Positions 10,432 through 30,734 of a stretch of 64,000 nt of DNA are shown piece after piece. The stretch covers positions 24,021 to 88,020 of the forward strand of contig CAZLRH010000002.1 of assembly GCA_964562015.1 (NCBI GenBank). Reading direction: 5' to 3'. The notes below the pieces were generated by a model that worked only from the letters and a program-made list of their open reading frames with translations, had not been told where the DNA came from and made no database searches. How positions within the stretch are numbered: position 1 is the first letter of the stretch; the number at the start of each line of letters is the position of its first letter. The DNA is from an uncultured Opitutales bacterium (GTDB taxonomy: Bacteria; Verrucomicrobiota; Verrucomicrobiia; Opitutales; JABDGR01). The position numbers and the translations under genes are program-made.

Positions 10432-12417
10432 TCATTTGACCTCGGCCGGCTGCTCCTCCGCCTCCGCGGCGGCCTCCGCGAGGCCGGCGAGTTTGAAATG
10501 CTGGGCGGTGAAATCGGCGGCCTGCACCACGGCGCGAAACACGCCTTTCAAAATTTCCTGGTCGATTTTGCTCAACTCCTCGGGGCGGATGAATTGGCCG
10601 TTGTCGCCGTGACGGAAGCCCGCGAGCGCCTGATGGTAAAGCGTGGCGCGCGCGGCCTCCGCGGCGTCCTCGAGTGCGGCGCGCCCGGCGGGCAGGCGTT
10701 GCGCGGCCTGCAAAAAGCGCGCGCTCGTGCTGAGCGGGTCCGGGCCGCCTGCCTCGAGGGCGAACACGCGCGCCATGTCGGCCAGCGGTTGGAGGGCGTG
10801 CTGCCGGGTGTCGATGCAGGTCCAGAGCAGGCCCTCCTTGTCCACGACGGCGTTGCGGAAAATGGTCAGCGGCGGCAAATTGGCGAGGGAGTCGTTGGCC
10901 GCGAGCAAAATAAACTGGGCCTGCTCTGCGATGCGCGCGCGAACGTGCCCGCGCAATTGTTCGGCGAGTTCACCCGCACCGGCCACTGCGCGCAGGTCAA
11001 AAAACGGCAAACGGGAAAGGATGTTCTCCTCGACGGGGCTTTCGATCCAGGTTTGAAAAACCCCGCGCCAACTGGAGAGCGACCGGCAGCAACCCGGTTG
11101 CGCGGCGACCATGCCCTCCGGCGAAGGACGAAAACCCACCGCCGCCAGGCCCGCCGTCACCTGCTCGGCCAGCCGCAAAAACCACGCCTGCACCGCGGCT
11201 TCCCGTCCGGGCGGCGGGTCGGCAAAGACGAGCGCGGTTTCCTGGTGCGAGCGCAACAAGCGCTCGCGGCGGCCCTCGGCGCCCACGGCCAGCCAGCAAA
11301 AATTCACGCCCGGCGCGGGCTCGCCGGAGGCGGCCATTTCCGCCGCGGCCAAATCCAGCAGGCGGGCGGTGATCTGGTCGTCCACCTCGCTGATAAAATC
11401 TCCCGCCCAGCTCAAGGGCGCGCGTTCCTGCAGGGCGAACTTGAGCAAATCCTCCGCGCGTTCGCGGAAGGCGCGCAAAGCGGCGGCATCCGGGGCCGTG
11501 CGGATTTCCATGCCCAGGGCAATCGGCAAACGCCCGTACAACACCTGCGTGTCGCGCTCGCTGATCAAGCCCGCCACGGAGGTTGCCGTCGTGCCATCGA
11601 CCGTGACCACCAGATGGCGGACCTTGTGCCGCAGCATTTCCAACACAATCTCGCCGGCGGTCAGGCCCGGCCGGACCGTCCACACCGGCCGGCTCATGAT
11701 GGCTTCGACGGGCGCCAGCAACGGCACTTCGCCGGTGGCCACGCGATGCACCAAATCCGTTTCCGTGATGACGCCGAGCGGGCGGCCGCCCGTGTCCACC
11801 ACCACCAGGGCGTCGCCGCGCGTGCGCAGGCGCTGGGCGGCGTCGCGCACGCTCATGGTCGGCAGGCCCGTGAGGAGGCGCCAGCGAGCGCGCTCCGCCA
11901 GCGGCGCGGTGGCGGAGAGCCAGGTGTCCGCGGCCTCGGTGGTCGAGCCCGCGCGCGAGGGGGCCGTGCCGGCCTGCGGGTCGGGCAATTGAAAATCGGG
12001 CCGGAGGGAAAAATAGGCGGCAAGATAGCGCGATACTTTCGGATATTTGCGGGCCAGCGGCGCAAAATCATCCCACGGCAGCGCGTACAGCAGGGTGTCC
12101 GTCTCGGTGCGAGCGCTTTGCACGAAGGTCTTCTCGCTGAGGAACCAGGAGATGCCGAGCAGGTCGCCCACGCCGCGCATGTCCACGAGTTCCTCGCCGC
12201 GCGGGGTGTTTTGCACGACGCGCACGGTGCCTTGCTGGATGACGTAGAGCCACGGGCCCCGCGGCTCACCCTGGCGGAAAATATATTCTCCCTCCTCGTG
12301 GAATTTCACCCGGCCCAGCGAGGCCAGCCGCTGGACGTCGGCCGGTTCCATGTACTCAAACGGCGGGTGCTCCTTGAGAAAGTCGGCGACCCGCAGGGCG
12401 ATGCTCGAAGTCTTCAT
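10432..12417 (-). CDS. cyclic-nucleotide-binding + tandem CBS + DUF294 (putative nucleotidyltransferase) signalling protein
   Basis: cNMP-binding beta-roll at the N-terminus (GEYIFRQGEPRGPWLYVIQQGTVRV), then CBS pairs and a C-terminal DUF294-like region. Start chosen at MKTSSIAL (12417). An in-frame upstream ATG at 12501 is also possible. Confidence 0.7.
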   Translation of the reverse strand: MKTSSIALRVADFLKEHPPFEYMEPADVQRLASLGRVKFHEEGEYIFRQGEPRGPWLYVIQQGTVRVVQNTPRGEELVDMRGVGDLLGISWFLSEKTFVQSARTETDTLLYALPWDDFAPLARKYPKVSRYLAAYFSLRPDFQLPDPQAGTAPSRAGSTTEAADTWLSATAPLAERARWRLLTGLPTMSVRDAAQRLRTRGDALVVVDTGGRPLGVITETDLVHRVATGEVPLLAPVEAIMSRPVWTVRPGLTAGEIVLEMLRHKVRHLVVTVDGTTATSVAGLISERDTQVLYGRLPIALGMEIRTAPDAAALRAFRERAEDLLKFALQERAPLSWAGDFISEVDDQITARLLDLAAAEMAASGEPAPGVNFCWLAVGAEGRRERLLRSHQETALVFADPPPGREAAVQAWFLRLAEQVTAGLAAVGFRPSPEGMVAAQPGCCRSLSSWRGVFQTWIESPVEENILSRLPFFDLRAVAGAGELAEQLRGHVRARIAEQAQFILLAANDSLANLPPLTIFRNAVVDKEGLLWTCIDTRQHALQPLADMARVFALEAGGPDPLSTSARFLQAAQRLPAGRAALEDAAEAARATLYHQALAGFRHGDNGQFIRPEELSKIDQEILKGVFRAVVQAADFTAQHFKLAGLAEAAAEAEEQPAEVK

Positions 12418-12544
12418 ACCGTGCGCGGTGGGGAAGGGGCCGCGGATTGTTTCGTCAGCCTGCGAATCCCCTAGGTTACACCGGCGCGCGTCCTGCGCCA
12501 AGCAAATCCCGAAGCAAAATGGAACCCTTTGCCCCCGCCGAAAA

Positions 12545-13471
12545 TCAGCGCGGGTCCGCCACCGCCATGGCCGAGCCCATCTGTGCGTACAACTCGCGGC
12601 CCTGGCGTGTGTTTTCGACCAAATCCTCCGCGAGCCGCACGCGCCCGGGCTCGAACAGCGTCACGGTGGCCGAACCGCCAAAGGCGAAATACCCCTTTTC
12701 GTCGCCCCGCGCCACACGGCGGCCAACGGCATAGGTCTGGTGAATGCTGCCGACATTCGTGGCGCCTACTTCGAGCAATAGAACGCGGCCCGCGCGCGGA
12801 GATTCAAACTCGGTGATGCGCCGCCGGTTTTCCCACAGGTAGGCCAGCCGCCGCCGCAGAGCGATCGGGTTGACGCTCCACAACGTCCCGCGCACCAAGC
12901 GAGCCGGGCCGGGCGTGCCGTCCGTCGGAAAATGAAACCGGTGATAATCCACCGGACACAGGCGCGACAAAATGAGCGTGCCCTGCGCATACCGCCGCGC
13001 CAGTTCGGCATCCCCGAGCAGCGCGCGGAGATTCCAGCGCTGGCCCTTGATGAAGACTCCGTCCACCTTGGAGACATCCGGGAACCCAAGGTGCCGCCCG
13101 TCCGCGCCGAAGACCATCGTCTCCGGTCCGCCGGCCAACGGGCGCACTCCCGCCTTCAGGCGCCGCACGAAGAAATCGTTAAAGCTGCGAAAATTCTCCA
13201 CCGGCTCGGCAAATTCGGATTCGTCCAGCGCATAGTGCTGGAGAAAGGGACGGATGCGCAGGCGGCTGACGCTCCGGCGCATGCGCCAGCCGTACCAGTG
13301 CGCAAACCAGCCGCGCCGTGCCACCGCCCAGGCCGTCAGGCGACCCTGGCCCGATTCATAGGCCCACCGCAGAAAACTCTCGCCGTAAACCTGCTCCACC
13401 TCGACCCGGCCGGTGTGCCGGTTGAAGTACTCAACCGGCTGGCCGCGCGCGGCTTTGACGCTGTCAAACAT
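12545..13471 (-). CDS. psd: phosphatidylserine decarboxylase proenzyme
   Basis: FNDFFVRRLKAGVRP, LSRLCPVDYHRFHFP, and a FGGS-type cleavage motif near the C-terminus. Start at MFDSVK (13471). The ORF extends in frame to 13507. Confidence 0.8.
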   Translation of the reverse strand: MFDSVKAARGQPVEYFNRHTGRVEVEQVYGESFLRWAYESGQGRLTAWAVARRGWFAHWYGWRMRRSVSRLRIRPFLQHYALDESEFAEPVENFRSFNDFFVRRLKAGVRPLAGGPETMVFGADGRHLGFPDVSKVDGVFIKGQRWNLRALLGDAELARRYAQGTLILSRLCPVDYHRFHFPTDGTPGPARLVRGTLWSVNPIALRRRLAYLWENRRRITEFESPRAGRVLLLEVGATNVGSIHQTYAVGRRVARGDEKGYFAFGGSATVTLFEPGRVRLAEDLVENTRQGRELYAQMGSAMAVADPR

Positions 13472-13709
13472 ACGCCCCACACAACCGGATGCCCCCGCGC
13501 TCCTCAAGCGCGAACCGCGATGTGCTTAGACACCTGCGGACGCCCGCATCGCCTCGATGAATTGGAATTCAGTGATTCTTCCTTGGCAAAATAAAGGCAA
13601 AGCCTCATTTCCAAATCAGGCGAGACTATCTATGCTGTTGGTTAGCTTTTGCAGGACTGTCATTTTGCTTTCAGAATTTTGCATTCTACATTCTCGATTC
13701 TACCTTCTC

Positions 13710-14321
13710 ATGTTGTGGCAAATTCTCCTTTTCGACGGTTTTGACGAACTCGACGCGGTCGCGCCGTTCGAGGTGCTGCAGATGGCGGCTGCGCGCGTGC
13801 CGGAGTGGCGGGTGGAACTCGTGGCCGTGGAGGGCCCGCGTGAAATCACCGCCAACCACGGGCTGCGCTTGCACGCCACCGGCAAGCTGGGGCCGACGAG
13901 CGGACTGGGCCGCCCGGATGTCATCATCGTGCCAGGCGGCGGATGGGTGGACCGCAAGGCCCACGGCGCACGCGCCGAAGTCACGCGCGGATTAATTCCC
14001 AAAGCCCTAGGTGAGTTGAGCCGCTCGGGTACCCTCGTCTGCTCCGTCTGCACGGGGGCGATGCTCGTGGCCGCGGCGGGATTGCTGCGCAATCGGCCGG
14101 CGACGACCCATCACGCCGCGCTCGAGGATTTGCGCGCGGCCGGGGCGAAAATTATTTCGGCGCGCGTGGTGGACGCCGGCGACCTGGTGACCGCGGGCGG
14201 CGTCACCTCCGGCCTCGACCTGGCCCTGCATCTGGTGGGTCGCTTCAGTTCCCCCGCCCTCGCCCGCCAGCTCGAAGGCACGCTCGAATACGAGCAGCGC
14301 GAGGAAGCGTGGAAGGGCTAG
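13710..14321 (+). CDS. DJ-1/PfpI (ThiJ) family protein
   Basis: ILLFDGFDELDAVAPFEVL, VIIVPGGGW, nucleophile elbow CSVCTGAMLVAAAGLL. ATG at 13710 directly after a CT-rich leader. Confidence 0.8.
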   Translation: MLWQILLFDGFDELDAVAPFEVLQMAAARVPEWRVELVAVEGPREITANHGLRLHATGKLGPTSGLGRPDVIIVPGGGWVDRKAHGARAEVTRGLIPKALGELSRSGTLVCSVCTGAMLVAAAGLLRNRPATTHHAALEDLRAAGAKIISARVVDAGDLVTAGGVTSGLDLALHLVGRFSSPALARQLEGTLEYEQREEAWKG

Positions 14322-14791
14322 CCTTTGGGATGATTCGTCGCAACGATCCCCGCGCCCGCGATGCCATCCTCGGAGACCAGGCCCACTTTCGGCTCCGTTG
14401 AGTTTTCTCGGGCCTGTTTCGCGGCTTTCCGTTTGGCCGTCAAGGCCGCGGCATATGCGTCAGCTTCCTGCTCGGTAATGACGCCGTCCTTATCCGCGTC
14501 GGCCTGCGCCAGGGCGGCATTGACGAGGATAGTAGAGGAATCTCGATCCCGCTCATAATAACTGACCGGCAAAGGCACAAAGAGGGTGAGGCTGTGCTTA
14601 TATCCGTCGGCGGGAAATTTCTCCGCCAGCAACGCCTCGTAAAACGTCTGGGACGCTTTCTCCGAGGCAAAAGTTGTGCCGGCACGCGGGGCGTCATGGT
14701 AAGTGTACTTTTGCACGGACACGCAGCCGTAGAGGAGAAGCGCGGACAACGCCGCGGGAAGGAGACCAGGGAGGCGGAAGTTAAGGGTCAT
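14318..14791 (-). CDS. lipoprotein with EF-hand-like Ca-binding loop (hypothetical)
   Basis: Lipoprotein signal MTLNFRLPGLLPAALSALLLYGC. DADKDGVITEQEAD matches the 12-residue EF-hand loop (DxDxDGxIxxxE). Confidence 0.5.
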   Translation of the reverse strand: MTLNFRLPGLLPAALSALLLYGCVSVQKYTYHDAPRAGTTFASEKASQTFYEALLAEKFPADGYKHSLTLFVPLPVSYYERDRDSSTILVNAALAQADADKDGVITEQEADAYAAALTAKRKAAKQARENSTEPKVGLVSEDGIAGAGIVATNHPKG

Positions 14792-14890
14792 GCAGGCCGT
14801 AATACCTCTAACTAATAGGTATGTCAACCATTAAACTATGAGGTATTGCAGCCCCAGCGAGATCCGGCTGCGTGAAATCAAAAAAGAGAA

Positions 14891-17527
14891 CTATTTCTTC
14901 TCGGGTTTACCGGCCGCTTTTTCGCCCGCCACCACAGTCATCACCAGTTCGCCTTTTTTCTCGTCGGCGGTGAATTTCGCGGTCTGGCCCTCGCGGATTT
15001 CTCCGGCAATAAGCGCGCGGGCGAGGCGGGTTTCGACTTGTTTCTGGAGGAACCGGCGCAGGGGACGCGCGCCGAACACCGGGTCGTAGCCGCGCTCGGC
15101 GGCCCACGATTTCGCAGCGTTATCAAACTCGACGCGCACGCGGCGGTCCGCCAGACGCTTGTTCACATCGGCCAGCAGCAAGTCCACGATGTGGGTGATT
15201 TCCTCGAGCGTGAGCGGCTTGAAGAGAATGACATCGTCGATGCGGTTTAAAAATTCCGGGCGGAAGGCGCCGCGCAATTCCGTCATCACGCTTTCGCGCA
15301 CGCTCTCGGGAATTTCGTCGCCGCGCACGCCTTCGAGCAGGAAGCGCGAGCCGATGTTCGAAGTCATGATGATGACGGTGTTTTTGAAATCGACCACGCG
15401 GCCCTGGCTGTCCGTCAGGCGGCCGTCGTCAAGAATTTGCAGGAGCGTGTTGAACACGTCGGGGTGGGCTTTTTCCACTTCGTCGAACAGCACGACGCAA
15501 TACGGTTTGCGGCGCACGGCCTCGGTGAGCTGGCCGCCCTCGTCGTAGCCGACGTACCCAGGTGGCGCGCCGATGAGCCGCGCGACCGAGTGTTTTTCCA
15601 TGTATTCGCTCATGTCGAGCCGCACGATATTGTCCTCGCTGTCGAACAGCGCGGCGGCGAGCGTCTTTGCCAGCTCGGTTTTGCCGACGCCGGTGGGCCC
15701 CAAAAACAGGAACGAGCCGATGGGCCGGCGCGGGTCCTTGATGCCGGCGCGCGCGCGCAAAATCGCCTCGGTGACGAGCGTGACCGCCTCGTGCTGGCCG
15801 ATGACGCGCTCGTGCAAGACCTCCTCGAGGCGTAAAAGTTTTTCCTTCTCCCCCTCGAGCAGGCGGGTGACCGGCACGCCCGTCCAGCGGGCGACAATTT
15901 CCGCGATTTCCTCGCCCGTGACCTCCTCCTTGAAGAGCGTGTTCTTGTCCTCGGATTTTTCGAGCTTCGCCAATTCGGCCTCGAGCTTTGGAATGGTGCC
16001 GTGGCGCAGCTCGGCCATTTTTTGCAAATCGTAGGTGCGCTCGGCGGTTTCCATGGCCTGGCGCGCGGCTTCCAGTTCCTCGCGGACTTTTTGCACGCGG
16101 CCCTGCGCGGCTTTTTCCGACTCCCAGCGGGCCCGCAAAGCCCCGGCCTCGGCGCGGATACCGGTCAGCTCCTTGCGCAGGGTGTCGAGCCGTCGCTTGG
16201 AGGCCTCGTCCTTTTCATTTTTTAGCGCGGCCTCCTCAATTTCCAATTGCAGAACGCGGCGCGACAACCCGTCGAGTTCTTGCGGCATGGAATCGCGGTC
16301 GGTGCGAATCATCGCACAGGCTTCGTCCATGAGGTCGATCGCCTTGTCCGGGAGGAAGCGGTCGGCAATGTAGCGGTGGGAAAGAACGGCGGCCTCGACG
16401 AGCGCGTTGTCGGTGATGCGCACGCCGTGGTGCAATTCGAAGCGTTCCTTGAGCCCGCGCAAAATCGAAATGGTGTCCTCGACATTCGGCTGGTCCACCA
16501 TCACGGGCTGGAAGCGCCGTTCGAGCGCGGCGTCTTTCTCGATGTGCTTGCGGTATTCGTCGAGCGTGGTCGCACCAATGCAATGCAACTCGCCGCGCGC
16601 GAGCATGGGCTTGAGGAGATTGCCGGCATCCATGGCTCCCTCAGCCTTGCCCGCGCCGACGATGGTGTGCAATTCGTCGATGAATAGCACGACGCGCCCG
16701 GCGGAGTTTTTGATTTCCGCGAGGACGGCTTTGAGGCGTTCTTCGAATTCGCCGCGGTATTTCGCGCCGGCCAGGAGCGCGCCCATGTCGAGGGAGAAGA
16801 TGGTCTTGTCCTTCAGCCCCTCCGGCACATCACCGCGCACAATGCGGTGCGCCAGACCCTCGACGATGGCGGTCTTGCCGACGCCTGGCTCGCCGATGAG
16901 CACGGGGTTGTTCTTGGTCTTGCGCGACAAAATGCGGATGACGCGGCGGATTTCCTCATCGCGCCCGATGACCGGATCCAGCTTTCCCTTCTTGGCCTGC
17001 TCGACCAGATCGATGCCATATTTGCCCAGTGCGTCGTAAGTCGCCTCAGGATTCTCCGAAGTCACACGCTGGTTGCCGCGCACGGCCTTCAGGCTTTCAA
17101 GAATTTTTGCCGGCGTGATGCCGAAGCCCTGGAGAAATTTGCCGAACTCCGGCGCGCCGGGCGCTTCGACCAAGCCCAGCAGCAAGTGCTCGACCGAAAC
17201 GTAATCGTCCTTCAAGCGCTTGGCCGCGGCCTCGGCCTTGGTGACGGCGTCTTGAAACGCCTGCGTGATGTAAATTTGCGAGGCGCTGGCGGGGCCGGTC
17301 ACGCTCGGCAGGCGGTCCAATTCCTTGGCCAAACCCGTCTGGACCGCCGCGGGTGAAATCTCCAATTTTTGCAATAGGGCCGGCGCGAGGCCGCCCTCCT
17401 GCCCCAACAACGCCGCCAGCAAATGCCAGTTGTCGACCTGCTGGTGGTGCCGGCGCCGGGCCTCGGCCTGGGCCTCCATGATGGCCGCGCGCGCCTTTTC
17501 GGTAAATTTATTGAGGTCGAGATTCAT
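14891..17527 (-). CDS. clpB: ATP-dependent chaperone ClpB
   Basis: Two AAA+ modules ([15 protein letters not shown]; [15 protein letters not shown]) separated by a long coiled-coil M-domain. Clp N-domain at the N-terminus. Start MNLDLNKF. Confidence 0.97.
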
Positions 17528-21744: not shown

Positions 21745-22068
21745 ATGAAAAATACCACCTTGCGGATAAGCCCGCGCGGCACCGTCACACTCCCTAAACT
21801 CTTACGCCAGCAATACGCGTTGGACACCCATGATCTATTGCTGGCCGAGTCCACGGCCGAGGGCATCCTGCTGCGCCCCGCCATCGCCACCCCCATCGAG
21901 CTCTACACCGATGAACGCCTGGCCGAGTTCGCCCAAGAGGAACGCAAACTGGAAGCGCGTTTGCAACGCGAACCGCGCCTGCGCAAATGGGTGGAGGAGG
22001 GCTCGCGCAAATTAGCGATTGAAACCAAGCAGCGCCTCCAACGCCGTGCCACCGCCTCCACGCGTTGA
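21745..22068 (+). CDS. AbrB/MazE/SpoVT-fold antitoxin-like protein
   Basis: LRISPRGTVTLPKLLRQQYAL... is typical of SpoVT/AbrB swapped-hairpin antitoxins (VapB-type). Followed 13 bp later by a PIN gene. Confidence 0.6.
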   Translation: MKNTTLRISPRGTVTLPKLLRQQYALDTHDLLLAESTAEGILLRPAIATPIELYTDERLAEFAQEERKLEARLQREPRLRKWVEEGSRKLAIETKQRLQRRATASTR

Positions 22069-22089
22069 CCTTCTTCGCCAGTGCCGCCC

Positions 22090-22482
22090 ATGAGTTCCGC
22101 GAGAGTTTTTGTGGCTGCCAATATCTTGTTCTCGGCCTGCCGACCGGGTCCAGCCTTGGGCGGCCTGCTCTTCCGCCTGGGCCAAGAGGAACGCCTGGTG
22201 ACCTGTGCCTTGGCGATCGAAGAAGCCGCGCGTAATCTGGAAAAGAAGCGGCCACAGTGGTTCCCACGACTCGCGCTCTTTATCCCCACCATCCAGCGCG
22301 TGCCACTAGGTGAATGCCCGGATGACATCTCCCTGCCCGCCAATGACGGCATGCTCTTGGGCGCAGCCATTGCCGCAGGCTGTGCGATTTTTCTGACGGG
22401 CGACTGCGGAGACTTTGGCCACCTTTATGGGCGGGTCATCGTCGGCGTGCGCGTCTTGCCGCCCAGCGAATTTAATCCTTAG
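22090..22482 (+). CDS. PIN-domain protein (VapC-like toxin homolog; first catalytic Asp replaced by Ala)
   Basis: ARVFVAANILFSA (PIN beta1, normally vxvDtNvl), EEAARNL, PANDGMLLGAAIAAGCAIFLTGDCGDF (conserved C-terminal LVTgD-type motif). ATG at 22090 inside the GTG-initiated ORF 22081. Confidence 0.55.
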   Translation: MSSARVFVAANILFSACRPGPALGGLLFRLGQEERLVTCALAIEEAARNLEKKRPQWFPRLALFIPTIQRVPLGECPDDISLPANDGMLLGAAIAAGCAIFLTGDCGDFGHLYGRVIVGVRVLPPSEFNP

Positions 22483-24512: not shown

Positions 24513-26174
24513 CTACTTTTCCGCCAAGCTCACGGCACCCTGCTGACGCATCGATTGCAAGAGGCCACTGCGCAGATTCGGTGGAAGATTGGCGGTCTGC
24601 GCCCACTGCAACGCTCCCGCGAAATCCTTGCCCATCCAGACGGTCAATACGCGTTTGAGGTTGTCGTCACGCAGTGCGGTGTCCGTAAGCGTCGTCGCCC
24701 AATTGAGCGCTCCGATCGGGTCCTTCCCGGCTTGCGCAGCGACCAGTTCAACCACGGCGGTATTGCGCTGAGCCCCCGGGGCCAAATCATTTATCCAGGC
24801 GGAGGCGGCTGACGGATCCTGCCGCAACCAAGTGGAGACCACCGCCTGGGTTGACGCCTCGAGCAACGGGCCGGCGGGAATCTGCGCGAGCAACGTCGCC
24901 GCCTGGGCTGGATCGCGTTTGGCCTGAGTGCCCATCAGGCTGGCGAGGGCGCCGTCTTGGCCCGGCCCTGGCGGCAGGGCTCCGGCCAGGTTCCACGCCG
25001 ACGAGAAATCGCTGGCGGACATTTGCACCAGCACGTTGCTCAAGGCCAGATCGCGCGACGAGCCCCCAGGCAGGTTTTGCACAAAGGCCAGGGCCGCGTC
25101 GGGACTGGACTTGGCTAAATTCGAGGCGAGGACGGGTGCATCCACCGCATAGATACTTGGATCCGCGGAAGCATTGACGAAGGCCAGCGCCGCGGCGGGA
25201 TCGTTTTTGGCCCAGACTAAAACGATCGACTGCAAGGCCCCAGTCCGGGCCATTGCATCCGCGTCGGGCAATTTCTGGGCCCAAGCCAGCGCGCCTCCGA
25301 GGTCAGTCTTGGTCCAACCGTTCGCCATGCTGGCAATGGCGGTCGCGCGCAGCGCCGGGTCCGTCACTTTGTCCAATAAGGCGACGGCACTGTCAAGGTC
25401 GGGCTTGTAAAACGAAAAAGTACTTCGAATCACGCCGCCGGGCAGCGTGGTGGCCTCCACTGGTGGTTTCGTTAAACTGGTGAAAATGAAGGCGAGCGTT
25501 TTTTGCAAATCCTCAGCGGAAGCAAATTGCGTCAGCAGTTCCAACGCGCCCTCCGAATTGCCCGCCCGGGTCATCCTCATCGCCACCGCCGAGGCCGCTT
25601 TGCTGCGGTCCCCGGGATTCTCCAACAAGCTCAGATAGCCCGCCGCCACCTCCGGCGCAGCCAGGTCTCCAAACGCACCGGGCGAAACCCCGAGGAGGCC
25701 TTTGAGCAGAGTTTGAGCGTCGGTTTCGGGGAGGCTGGCAGCCCAGGCGAGCGTAGTGTTCTCGTCTTCGCGTGTCCACCGCAGGGCGACACTGCGCAGG
25801 GCCGCAGTGCGCAGCTCGCCCGGCGGGAAATTGGCCGCGGCGGCCGCGGCGGCGAAGATCGGCATGTTTTTCAATACGTCTAACACGGCGGCGGTCGCGT
25901 CCTTGGCCCCCTCCGGTAATTCCCCCGCCAGGATTTTGGCAATTTGCGCGTTGCCCTGCGCCACAGTATAAAGAGCGACCGCCGGACCGCGTCGAGCCGG
26001 AGGCCCGTTCGAACGCTGAAGTCTTTGGCCCGCCGACGGCCTGGAGGTGGATGCCCCTGGCGTGCTCCCGCTGCTTGAGTCGAGCCAAGGACGGCGCCCC
26101 AAGAGAAAGCTCGTGCCGACAGCGGCCAAAACAAAGGCCCCTTGAAAAACCAGGCGTGGTGAGGGCTTTTTCAT
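24513..26174 (-). CDS. repeat-containing secreted/anchored protein, paralog B (about 45-aa W..DP..A..W...LP repeats)
   Basis: N-terminal anchor MKKPSPRLVFQGAFVLAAVGTSFLL. Repeats such as WTKTDLGGALAWAQKLPDADAMARTGAL / WAKNDPAAALAFVNASADPS / WLRQDPSAASAWINDLAPGAQRNTAVV. An alternative GTG start at 26219 is possible. Confidence 0.6.
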   Translation of the reverse strand: MKKPSPRLVFQGAFVLAAVGTSFLLGRRPWLDSSSGSTPGASTSRPSAGQRLQRSNGPPARRGPAVALYTVAQGNAQIAKILAGELPEGAKDATAAVLDVLKNMPIFAAAAAAANFPPGELRTAALRSVALRWTREDENTTLAWAASLPETDAQTLLKGLLGVSPGAFGDLAAPEVAAGYLSLLENPGDRSKAASAVAMRMTRAGNSEGALELLTQFASAEDLQKTLAFIFTSLTKPPVEATTLPGGVIRSTFSFYKPDLDSAVALLDKVTDPALRATAIASMANGWTKTDLGGALAWAQKLPDADAMARTGALQSIVLVWAKNDPAAALAFVNASADPSIYAVDAPVLASNLAKSSPDAALAFVQNLPGGSSRDLALSNVLVQMSASDFSSAWNLAGALPPGPGQDGALASLMGTQAKRDPAQAATLLAQIPAGPLLEASTQAVVSTWLRQDPSAASAWINDLAPGAQRNTAVVELVAAQAGKDPIGALNWATTLTDTALRDDNLKRVLTVWMGKDFAGALQWAQTANLPPNLRSGLLQSMRQQGAVSLAEK

Positions 26175-26215
26175 TGGCGGTGGGAAAAATAATAAACGGA
26201 ATGGCCCAGTCCCCT

Positions 26216-27928
26216 TCACTTCGCAGGGGAAGACGCCTGGGCAAGATTAACGCGCAGCAACGCGCGCTGGGCGGCGGAAAGATTGGCCGACGCCACCGCG
26301 CTCACGGCGGTATCGGGGTCACTTTTCGCCCACGCCGAAACGACGTTCTTAATCTGCGTAAAGCGATCATTGGCATTGCCAATGGAATTGGCGAAGGCCA
26401 GCGCCGCCGCCGGGTCTTTAATGGCAGTCACCGTCACCAGCTTGACCGTGGCGGCATCGCGCTGATCGCCCAGCGGCAACGTTTCGATCCACGCGGCGGC
26501 GGCGGTCGGATCCGTTTTGGCCCAATTGGCGGCCACCGCCACGATGGCGCTTTCGCCGGGAACGCCCGTGTCGTATTTTTCCAGAAAATCAGCGGCTTGG
26601 GCGGGGTCATGTTTGCTCAAGGCCGCCACGAGGCTGTCCATGGCGCCATCATGACCGACCCCGGCGGGCAAGGCCGCGGCCTGAGTCCAGGCGGCGGAAA
26701 AGTCGCTCGCCGCCATCGCCACTAATACGGTGCTTACGGCTTGGTCTTTTTCCAGGCCGCCGGGCAGATTTGCCACCCAGTCCAGCGCGGCTGGCGGATC
26801 CATCTTGGCCATGGCCTGGGCCAGCACAGGCGCAACACTAAGCAACGCCGGCGGATTGGACAGGCCTTGGACATAGGCCAGCGCGGCCGGAAGGTCCTGC
26901 CCCGCCAGGCCGGCCACCGCGGACCGCAAGGCCGCCGTGCGCACGACCCCGTCGGCCTCCGGCAGGGCTTGGGCCCACGCCAGTGCCGCCACCGGGTCCT
27001 TCGCGGACCATTGGTCGGCCAACTGCGCAATGACCGCCTCGCGGTCGAGCGGATCACTCAATTTGACCAGCAAATCCGCGCCGCCGGCCGGATCGTTTTC
27101 AGCCAGATCGGAGAAAATGGATTTTACAGCTTTATCATAAGTTGTACCATTGGCCACCTGATTCAGCCAATCCAGGGCCGCCGCCGGATCGGTGTTGGTG
27201 CGGTCGCGCCAATAACCCATGCTCCAGGAATCAGCGATTTCCGCGATGACTTGGTTGCGCGCGGAGGCATCCGTGAGGTTGGCCACGTATTGGGCCGCGA
27301 GCGCGGGCTGGTGATTGCCGGCGGCGATCAGGGCGTCGGTCAACACCGCCGAATCCGTGGGTGGCAGCGCCACCGCCCAGTCTAACAACGCCCCGGCATC
27401 CCGCCGGGCCCAGCTGTCCGCGGCCCCCACCAAGGCGGCGGTTCGCTCCGGCCCGGGCGGCAGCGCGAGGGCGGCGCCCGCCGCTTTGGTGGCGTTCGCC
27501 GGATTTCCGCCGGCCCACGCGCTGAATGCACTGCGATAGGCCGCCTCGGTCAGTTCCCCATGCGGGAGCCGGGCCAATTCGCCCAACGCGCGCTCGGGCT
27601 GCATCAGCATCATCCGCGACACGCTGAGGCCATCAATATAGTACTGGCCCATCTGATCCACGCTGACCCTTACCCCACCCACTTGATGATCGATCAACGT
27701 CGAATGCGGATAGGGTCGCAGAAAATTATCCCGCGACACCTGCAGCGCCAGCTGGAGGCCAGGAGCGGCCACCGCCGCCGGCCGCGACGAGGTTTCACCC
27801 TTGTCCTCCAGCAGCCATCGCTCCGGAGGCGGCGGCCGCCGCAGCGCGGCTCCGCCCAAAAATGCAGCCACCATGGTCGCCGCCAGGCCTACGACGCGAA
27901 TAGACCGGTGGCGAAATAACCGCGTCAT
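26216..27928 (-). CDS. repeat-containing secreted/anchored protein, paralog A (same repeat family)
   Basis: N-terminal hydrophobic anchor VVGLAATMVAAFLGGAAL. Repeats WSAKDPVAALAWAQALPEADGVVRTAAL / WAKTDPTAAAAWIETLPLGDQRDAATV / WAKSDPDTAVSAV. Similar in length and repeat architecture to 24513..26174. Confidence 0.6.
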   Translation of the reverse strand: MTRLFRHRSIRVVGLAATMVAAFLGGAALRRPPPPERWLLEDKGETSSRPAAVAAPGLQLALQVSRDNFLRPYPHSTLIDHQVGGVRVSVDQMGQYYIDGLSVSRMMLMQPERALGELARLPHGELTEAAYRSAFSAWAGGNPANATKAAGAALALPPGPERTAALVGAADSWARRDAGALLDWAVALPPTDSAVLTDALIAAGNHQPALAAQYVANLTDASARNQVIAEIADSWSMGYWRDRTNTDPAAALDWLNQVANGTTYDKAVKSIFSDLAENDPAGGADLLVKLSDPLDREAVIAQLADQWSAKDPVAALAWAQALPEADGVVRTAALRSAVAGLAGQDLPAALAYVQGLSNPPALLSVAPVLAQAMAKMDPPAALDWVANLPGGLEKDQAVSTVLVAMAASDFSAAWTQAAALPAGVGHDGAMDSLVAALSKHDPAQAADFLEKYDTGVPGESAIVAVAANWAKTDPTAAAAWIETLPLGDQRDAATVKLVTVTAIKDPAAALAFANSIGNANDRFTQIKNVVSAWAKSDPDTAVSAVASANLSAAQRALLRVNLAQASSPAK

Positions 27929-28124
27929 GGGAAATTATATTAATTGGTTCCTGGAAGCCGACAAGCCAGGAAAATCCATGGCTCCGACTTTGACCACCGC
28001 CCGAGGTGGTCTCAGCCCTGCCGTCATTCACGTTGGCACATCCCCTGCTCCCAGGCCGTCGTCACCCAACTTTCACCCATTTCCCGCTTCCTCAATCGCC
28101 GGCTCTTGTTAGTCTGCTCTTGTC

Positions 28125-30734
<2,610 letters not shown>

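Follow-up and report, generated by a model that had tools for sequence, protein, structure and literature searches.

The 64,000-nucleotide stretch of DNA analysed here (the window; contig CAZLRH010000002.1 of GenBank assembly GCA_964562015.1, from an uncultured Opitutales bacterium) raises the question of what two adjacent minus-strand genes, made almost entirely of an unfamiliar repeat, encode and whether their products could act together. Gene 1, or type 1 (B570; 26216..27928, minus strand), is an intact open reading frame (ORF) of 570 residues with an ATG start at 27928, and gene 2, or type 2 (A568; 24513..26219, minus strand), encodes 568 residues from GTG 26219 or 553 residues from ATG 26174. 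A first-pass annotation, made without database searches, had read them as tandem paralogues with either a 4-bp overlap or a gap of about 42 bp, and had asked whether one copy might be a pseudogene. They are paralogues indeed (38% identity over 430 residues; E=2e-67 by BLAST); the GTG start produces the 4-bp overlap with B570 and the ATG start a gap of 41 nt, and neither copy is a pseudogene, both being intact and having conserved orthologues. We are highly confident that both proteins are N-terminally anchored alpha-solenoids built from a new repeat family. That they form a periplasmic heteromer for binding or sensing, a relative of the input domain found in membrane-tethered extracytoplasmic function (ECF) sigma factors, appears to us about equally likely to be right or wrong.

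The repeat itself carries the motif W..DP..A..W...LP.G..RD, which recurs every 31-34 residues (mean about 32), a period supported by the motif spacing, the domains found with a hidden Markov model (HMM) and the spacing of helix pairs in the structure models. The four repeat strings quoted in the first-pass annotation are all present (at A336, B307, B469 and A464) and the recurrence it described is real and exceeds chance, but the length of about 45 residues that it gave does not hold. The consensus can be written as WAksDPaAAlaWaaaLPdGalRDaAlasva and is given by the iterated HMM as WAKSDPAAALAWAAALPDGALRDAALASVAA; the short helix of each unit corresponds to 'DPxAALxW' and the long helix to 'RDxAxxxLxxxWA'. 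The HMM was seeded on 14 units of the window proteins and then iterated, after which it recognised about nine clear units per protein (residues 208-542 of B570, 26303-27307; residues 274-542 of A568, 24594-25400; both minus strand) and 3-4 degenerate units upstream of them, amounting to 12-13 units per protein at i-E<0.01. Clear repeats are thus confined to the C-terminal 270-335 residues. Both proteins are rich in Ala (19-22%) and contain no Cys. The seed HMM before iteration scored 23-131 bits on seven homologues outside the seed and at most 5.7 bits on their shuffled versions (20 shuffles of each), so the repeat is not an artefact of composition. Additional off-register alignments between B570 and A568 (E=1e-8 and 1e-3 by BLAST) likewise indicate internal repetition.

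The first-pass annotation could not place this family, and the searches bear it out. For B570 and A568, neither Pfam nor NCBIfam returned anything above noise even at E<=10, the PDB contained no relative detectable by sequence or by profile, and no account of the repeat, nor of sigma-solenoid fusions in Verrucomicrobia, turned up in the literature library that was searched. Among 51 aligned members, Pfam gave only sub-threshold matches to ELYS, Katanin_con80 and HEAT_2, plus ECF sigma domains in five of them. The suggested HEAT/ARM/PBS-lyase-like fold therefore has to be divided: the proteins are alpha-solenoids and share with HEAT, ARM, TPR and Sel1 proteins the general architecture of stacked helix pairs, but neither window protein matched the Pfam models HEAT, HEAT_2, HEAT_PBS or Arm at E<=10, and the period of 31-34 residues falls outside the lengths of the HEAT repeat (about 37-47 residues) and the ARM repeat (about 42). 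HEAT_2 weakly matches three of the 51 relatives, with a best E of 3e-4. The structural neighbours in the PDB are generic solenoids only, with PPR-type proteins on top; in the Foldseek comparison against the PDB the top matches were importins, PP2A-A and SF3B1, at template-modelling scores of only 0.2-0.3. Judged from the structure models, the geometry of the solenoid is nearer to PPR/TPR than to HEAT/ARM, and the window proteins have the helix-pair solenoid geometry of the 35-residue PPR. Their identity to maize PPR10 (PDB 4m57) is about 10%, however, the repeat signature is different, and the PPR models of Pfam match neither the window proteins nor the aligned relatives. Moreover, PPR proteins are organellar and bind RNA, whereas the window proteins are bacterial, membrane-anchored, acidic and probably periplasmic. 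Combining these comparisons, the 32-residue 'W-DP-A-W-LP-G-RD' repeat is a new family and a variant of the known alpha-solenoid theme.

Membership in ELYS (PF13934), a helical domain of nuclear-pore assembly, was considered and rejected as repeat-driven noise. Weak summed matches occur in 15 of the 51 relatives (21-33 bits, the best 33 bits), most of them below the gathering cut-off of 28.8 bits; the relatives contain no individually significant stretch, and the window proteins do not match at E<=10. ELYS is nevertheless recorded in the precomputed annotations of the family members P0002, P0015, P0032, P0048, P0113, P0114 and P0120, and is a likely source of spurious annotation.

The proposed N-terminal anchor and alpha-solenoid fold are both borne out by hydropathy and by AlphaFold2 (AF2) models, whose mean predicted local distance difference test (pLDDT) is 90.7 for B570 and 85.6 for the 553-residue form of A568, with predicted template-modelling scores of 0.78 and 0.72. 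In B570 (all features on the minus strand), an Arg-rich tail of about 7-10 residues precedes one membrane helix at 27845..27907 (residues 8-28, also a helix in the AF2 model; hydropathy peak 1.78). It is followed by a Pro/Ala/Ser-rich disordered linker at 27743..27844 (residues 29-62; pLDDT <50 for 34-62), an N-terminal cap at 27569..27742, consisting of a small beta-hairpin/sheet (AF2 strands 79-83, 86-90 and 96-98) and the first helices, and the alpha-solenoid at 26234..27568 (residues 121-565; about 13 helix-pair repeats of about 32 residues). The motif 'SVDQMGxYYIDG' of the cap is conserved among type-1 orthologues, and the solenoid is modelled as alternating short (about 9 residues) and long (about 17 residues) helices, the starts of the long ones lying 29-35 residues apart. 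A568, also on the minus strand, has its membrane helix at 26097..26159 (residues 21-41 in the 568-residue numbering; AF2 helix 6-26 of the 553-residue form; hydropathy peak 1.86), a Ser/Gly/Pro-rich disordered linker at 25986..26090 (pLDDT <50 for residues 29-63 of the 553-residue form) and an alpha-solenoid at 24519..25985 (residues 64-552 of that form), into which AF2 places a beta-hairpin insertion at 25416-25460 (residues 239-253 of that form). The solenoid thus makes up about 450-490 residues of each protein. A single N-terminal membrane helix is a feature of both window proteins and of 150 of 240 family members. Both solenoids are acidic (net charge -3 to -14), and the full proteins differ in isoelectric point (5.1 vs 8.9), a difference that stems from the basic N-terminal region of A568. 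The flanks of the B570 membrane helix carry net charges of +4 on the N-side and +1 on the C-side, an asymmetry that suggests an N-in orientation. We infer a periplasmic location for the solenoid, because of this charge asymmetry and because the sigma domain of the fused relatives described below must be cytoplasmic, with the membrane helix separating it from the solenoid.

This family is very large, and some genomes carry several of its loci, which bears on the first-pass annotation's question about copies in related taxa. A word-indexed search yielded 107 relatives, all unnamed or 'hypothetical', and a profile scan of 1.84 billion cluster representatives (clustered at 50% identity) found 29,729 clusters with E<=1e-3, of which 8,596 reach E<=1e-30. 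Among the records that name their organism, members are almost entirely from Verrucomicrobiota (Opitutales, Verrucomicrobiae, Verrucomicrobiales, Luteolibacter, Rariglobus and Opitutus), plus one metagenome-assembled genome (MAG) labelled Gammaproteobacteria. Uncultured Opitutales MAGs contain the proteins nearest to B570 and A568 (about 48% identity). Distant members are present in two culturable relatives, Luteolibacter yonseiensis and Opitutus sp. ER46. Five loci were found in MAG MFD04780.bin.1.113 and four in binchicken_co54_450; no third copy was found in the 64-kb window.

Members tend to stand side by side. At least two adjacent same-strand members are present in 15 of 19 loci compared (the window, L002-L012, L014, L015 and L018); in the eleven loci L002-L012 two or three members adjoin, with anything from a few bases to some tens of them in between, and L018 has five in a row. 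In L002, L003 and L004 the first gene is the orthologue of B570 (447, 362 and 353 bits to B570) and the second is that of A568 (305, 304 and 280 bits to A568), and by HMMs of the two orthologue groups, six of seven further loci have a position-1 gene that scores as more B-like than the gene in position 2. Position-1 and position-2 genes also fall into two groups in the neighbour-joining tree, where the orthologue clades of B570 and A568 received 78-79% bootstrap, values that are approximate, as the computation gave a numerical warning on the most remote pairs. The flanking genes differ between loci and are unrelated among L002-L006 (where some of the ORFs called proved to be antisense artefacts), leaving the pair as the only conserved unit. 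Two position groups together with a kept gene order indicate that the duplication is old and that type 1 followed by type 2 has been maintained, as would be expected of two subunits working together. In line with the first-pass annotation, which had them working as a pair, B570 and A568 are thus probably a functional pair.

Several minor observations accompany these loci. A secreted EF-hand (calcium-binding) protein is encoded a few hundred bases downstream of the B-then-A pair in L002 (about 12454-12957), L003 (about 12335-12838) and L004 (8010-8702), and is absent from the window, where mutL takes the downstream place. The five consecutive members of L018 (3829-14411), the second of which is fused to a sigma factor, belong to a locus syntenic with L015, both having an arginine decarboxylase gene upstream; the L018 sample is from the same ENA accession series as the source of the window. 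In L011 (7572-10005) one member appears split by a frameshift, possibly through gene fission or an assembly error.

Bacteria rely on ECF sigma factors as one of their major means of signalling (PMC7826278). The first-pass annotation had proposed looking for one linked to the pair, and none was found in the 64-kb window; a sigma connection exists all the same, through fusion proteins in relatives rather than through a linked sigma gene. Nineteen of 266 members (7%) have an N-terminal ECF sigma factor, recognised by Pfam Sigma70_r2 and Sigma70_r4_2 and by NCBIfam TIGR02937 (the last above its cut-off); in these members, sigma region 4 is followed by about 35-45 Ala/Gly-rich residues with 'AAPxGLA', a Lys/Thr-rich 'MTTKTK', the membrane helix and the solenoid. 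This junction is conserved while the median identity is 31% for the solenoids and 49% for the sigma parts, and conservation despite diverged solenoids indicates that the fusion is old and maintained. ECF sigma factors of Planctomycetes can acquire C-terminal extensions through fortuitous insertion (PMC7671368); judging from its junction, the sigma-solenoid fusion does not look like such recent insertions. An unfused member adjoins the sigma-fused gene in five of the seven sigma-fused loci (L006, L010, L012, L015 and L018; not in L017 and L019), and in L006 and L010 the unfused paralogue comes after the fused one. Neither B570 nor A568 contains Sigma70_r2 or Sigma70_r4 according to Pfam and NCBIfam, and ten candidate-size ORFs of the window that were checked contain no Sigma70 domain.

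Among the nearest described systems are IutY of Pseudomonas putida (ECF243) and SCO4117 of Streptomyces coelicolor (ECF52), hybrid sigma/anti-sigma proteins that are membrane-tethered and released by regulated proteolysis (PMC8999054). The fused relatives have the same layout, with an N-terminal ECF sigma factor, a membrane helix and a large extracytoplasmic domain, whereas the window proteins themselves lack the sigma domain. The fusions also differ in having no recognisable FecR or zinc-finger anti-sigma domain between the sigma factor and the membrane helix, in having a solenoid of the new repeat as the extracytoplasmic part, and usually in having an unfused paralogous partner. In the RseA-RseB system of sigma-E, the periplasmic partner is encoded directly after the tethering protein and modulates its proteolytic release. 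The unfused paralogue following the sigma-fused member in L006 and L010 could be an analogous arrangement; however, RseA and RseB have no sequence or fold relation to the solenoid proteins, and here the partner has a membrane anchor of its own and is paralogous to the sensor domain.

On these grounds, each window protein would consist of a short basic cytoplasmic tail, one membrane helix, a flexible linker and a superhelical alpha-solenoid tethered to the periplasmic side of the inner membrane, and the two paralogues together could offer a hetero-oligomeric surface on which a ligand or partner protein is bound or sensed. In the fused relatives (about 7%), the membrane helix and solenoid would keep the ECF sigma factor membrane-bound and govern its release, possibly by regulated proteolysis as for IutY and SCO4117, and the unfused partner next to a fusion could modulate this release as RseB does for RseA. 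The window pair might exert its output by way of a partner encoded at another place in the genome, such as a sigma-fused paralogue, or it might serve only for binding or scaffolding. Heteromer formation, the sensor role and proteolytic release are all deduced from such comparisons, and we put a signalling role of the pair at even chances or slightly below. The most complete version of the proposal, which we advance tentatively and consider doubtful, is that the pair is the sigma-less form of an undescribed extracytoplasmic signalling system found mainly in Verrucomicrobiota, in which a heterodimer of type 1 and type 2 solenoids would sense a ligand, fused versions would gate the proteolytic release of a tethered ECF sigma factor, and the unfused paralogue would be an RseB-like modulator.

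A number of observations weigh against a heteromeric sensor module. Four loci (L013, L016, L017 and L019) have a single member each, two of them sigma-fused, and the complete split into type 1 and type 2 received only 17-29% of the same approximate bootstrap. The solenoids of B570 and A568 show no charge complementarity. No fusion-type sigma factor was detected in the 64-kb window at E<1 with the corresponding HMM, and mutL and glgP, both housekeeping genes, are conserved neighbours in none of the other loci. The topology derives from the positive-inside rule and from homology to the sigma fusions, and in the fusions an Ala/Gly-rich hydrophobic stretch before the membrane helix makes the helix count uncertain. 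Given the fortuitous insertions in Planctomycetes, the fusion taken alone is also weak evidence of function.

Some of these points would suit a purely structural function, with the pair acting as a periplasmic or envelope scaffold or adaptor (for peptidoglycan, polysaccharide or envelope proteins, in the manner of other periplasmic superhelices) without signalling, and with the sigma fusions as a side-branch. No sigma factor or regulator is linked within the window, about 93% of members are unfused, and ECF extensions of the Planctomycete kind can be fortuitous (PMC7671368). On the other hand, many paralogous pairs per genome and arrays of up to five would be an expansion typical of sensory families rather than of single-copy scaffolds, the sigma fusion is old with a conserved junction, and the variable neighbouring genes provide no link to envelope biogenesis; we therefore regard a scaffold without signalling as rather unlikely. 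Far less probable is the canonical anti-sigma role, mentioned in the first-pass annotation, in which B570 and A568 would sequester an ECF sigma factor in the cytoplasm. Like class I anti-sigma factors, they would cross the membrane once and have a large domain outside the cytoplasm, and homologous domains occur in sigma fusion proteins. An anti-sigma domain, however, needs roughly 80-90 cytoplasmic residues, and the tails have only about 7-20, the membrane helix starting at residue 8 in B570 and at residue 6 (553-residue form) or 21 (568-residue form) in A568; starts far upstream are impossible because in-frame stops bound both ORFs. This lack of room excludes the canonical role. In addition, class I anti-sigma genes usually directly follow the ECF sigma gene, whereas the neighbours here are mutL and glgP with no adjacent ECF sigma gene, and the window proteins have no anti-sigma match in Pfam or NCBIfam.

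A third possibility, that B570 and A568 are cytoplasmic PPR-like nucleic-acid-binding solenoids, either anchored with the N-terminus out and the C-terminus in or not anchored at all, draws on public gene calls that omit the membrane helix. We consider it very improbable: besides the missing PPR match in Pfam and the low identity to PPR neighbours (only about 10%), the basic tail and membrane helix are conserved in orthologues, the acidic solenoids (-3 to -14) would be unfavourable for RNA binding, and in the fusions the membrane helix separates the sigma domain from the solenoid.

Whatever the function of this one pair, the analysis defines a large repeat family of at least 8,596 clusters without a Pfam or NCBIfam model or a solved relative, occurring as conserved gene pairs and supplying a number of membrane-tethered ECF sigma factors with their extracytoplasmic portion. 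With a family model, thousands of 'hypothetical protein' labels would disappear, start sites that cut off the membrane anchor would be mended and spurious 'ELYS/nuclear pore' matches would stop. For most ECF sigma factors of the Planctomycetes-Verrucomicrobia-Chlamydiae (PVC) phyla we know of no established input. If the pair is a heteromeric sensor, it would provide a testable entry into how Verrucomicrobia sense their surroundings, and if it is the sigma-less form of a signalling system, the family would represent a major unrecognised class of sensory input domain with thousands of clusters. The practical gain for this window alone is modest.

The choice of start codon bears on the anchor of both proteins. 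For gene 2, ATG 26174 (553 residues) is more likely than GTG 26219, because the second genes of homologous pairs open at an equivalent 'MK...' just before the membrane helix; the start 'MKAKFF...' of the L002 homologue aligns in its favour. The 41-nt spacer between the gene 1 stop and this probable ATG (26175..26215, minus strand) is AT-rich and resembles the leader before the B570 ATG, and the B570 N-terminus, 'MTRLFRHRSIR' followed by the helix, is matched in the alignment by eleven orthologues. Of the public gene calls, P0001 (552 residues) starts 18 residues late and truncates the B570 membrane helix, and P0022 (483 residues) starts gene 2 late and omits its helix. MAG annotations may systematically mis-start members of this solenoid family in this way, losing the N-terminal membrane helix.

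With regard to the surroundings, glgP (Pfam Phosphorylase, 1089 bits) lies at 28125-30734, divergent from B570 as first described, and mutL is convergent on the other flank, so that the pair is an isolated operon of two genes. The 196-bp intergenic region common to B570 and glgP (27929..28124) presumably contains the operon promoter; a promoter and terminator scan with the sigma-70 consensus found nothing above shuffle expectation and no site in this region. The glgP neighbourhood itself is not conserved and lends no support to any meaning of its own, glgP and mutL being absent from all other loci. An ENA contig (L001) carries copies of both solenoid genes and mutL identical to those of the window; its glgP fragment at the contig end (3-872) is only 78.6% identical to window 28236-29105, which suggests strain variation or a chimeric assembly end.

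Further observations concern the sigma-associated loci and the rest of the window. In L015 (10485-12360), two paralogous NHL-repeat proteins with PEP-CTERM signals are encoded directly downstream of the sigma-fused member and are candidate regulon members. About 2 kb separate the singleton member of L016 (Luteolibacter yonseiensis) from an ECF sigma gene, behind which comes a Ser/Thr kinase gene (12230-15313); the 758-residue protein encoded next matches neither Pfam nor the family HMM. L010 (6828-10130) has a sigma-fused gene whose solenoid is limited to the initial portion (about 4 repeats), and after it a separately anchored 440-residue member, an arrangement that could reflect gene fission or an assembly error. 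Within the window, two small adjacent plus-strand ORFs of 107 and 133 residues (21745-22482) are located between a DsbH-like thioredoxin gene and mutL; neither has a Pfam match, the N-terminus of the first ('RISPRGTVTLPK') looks AbrB/SpoVT-like, and the two may be a toxin-antitoxin pair.

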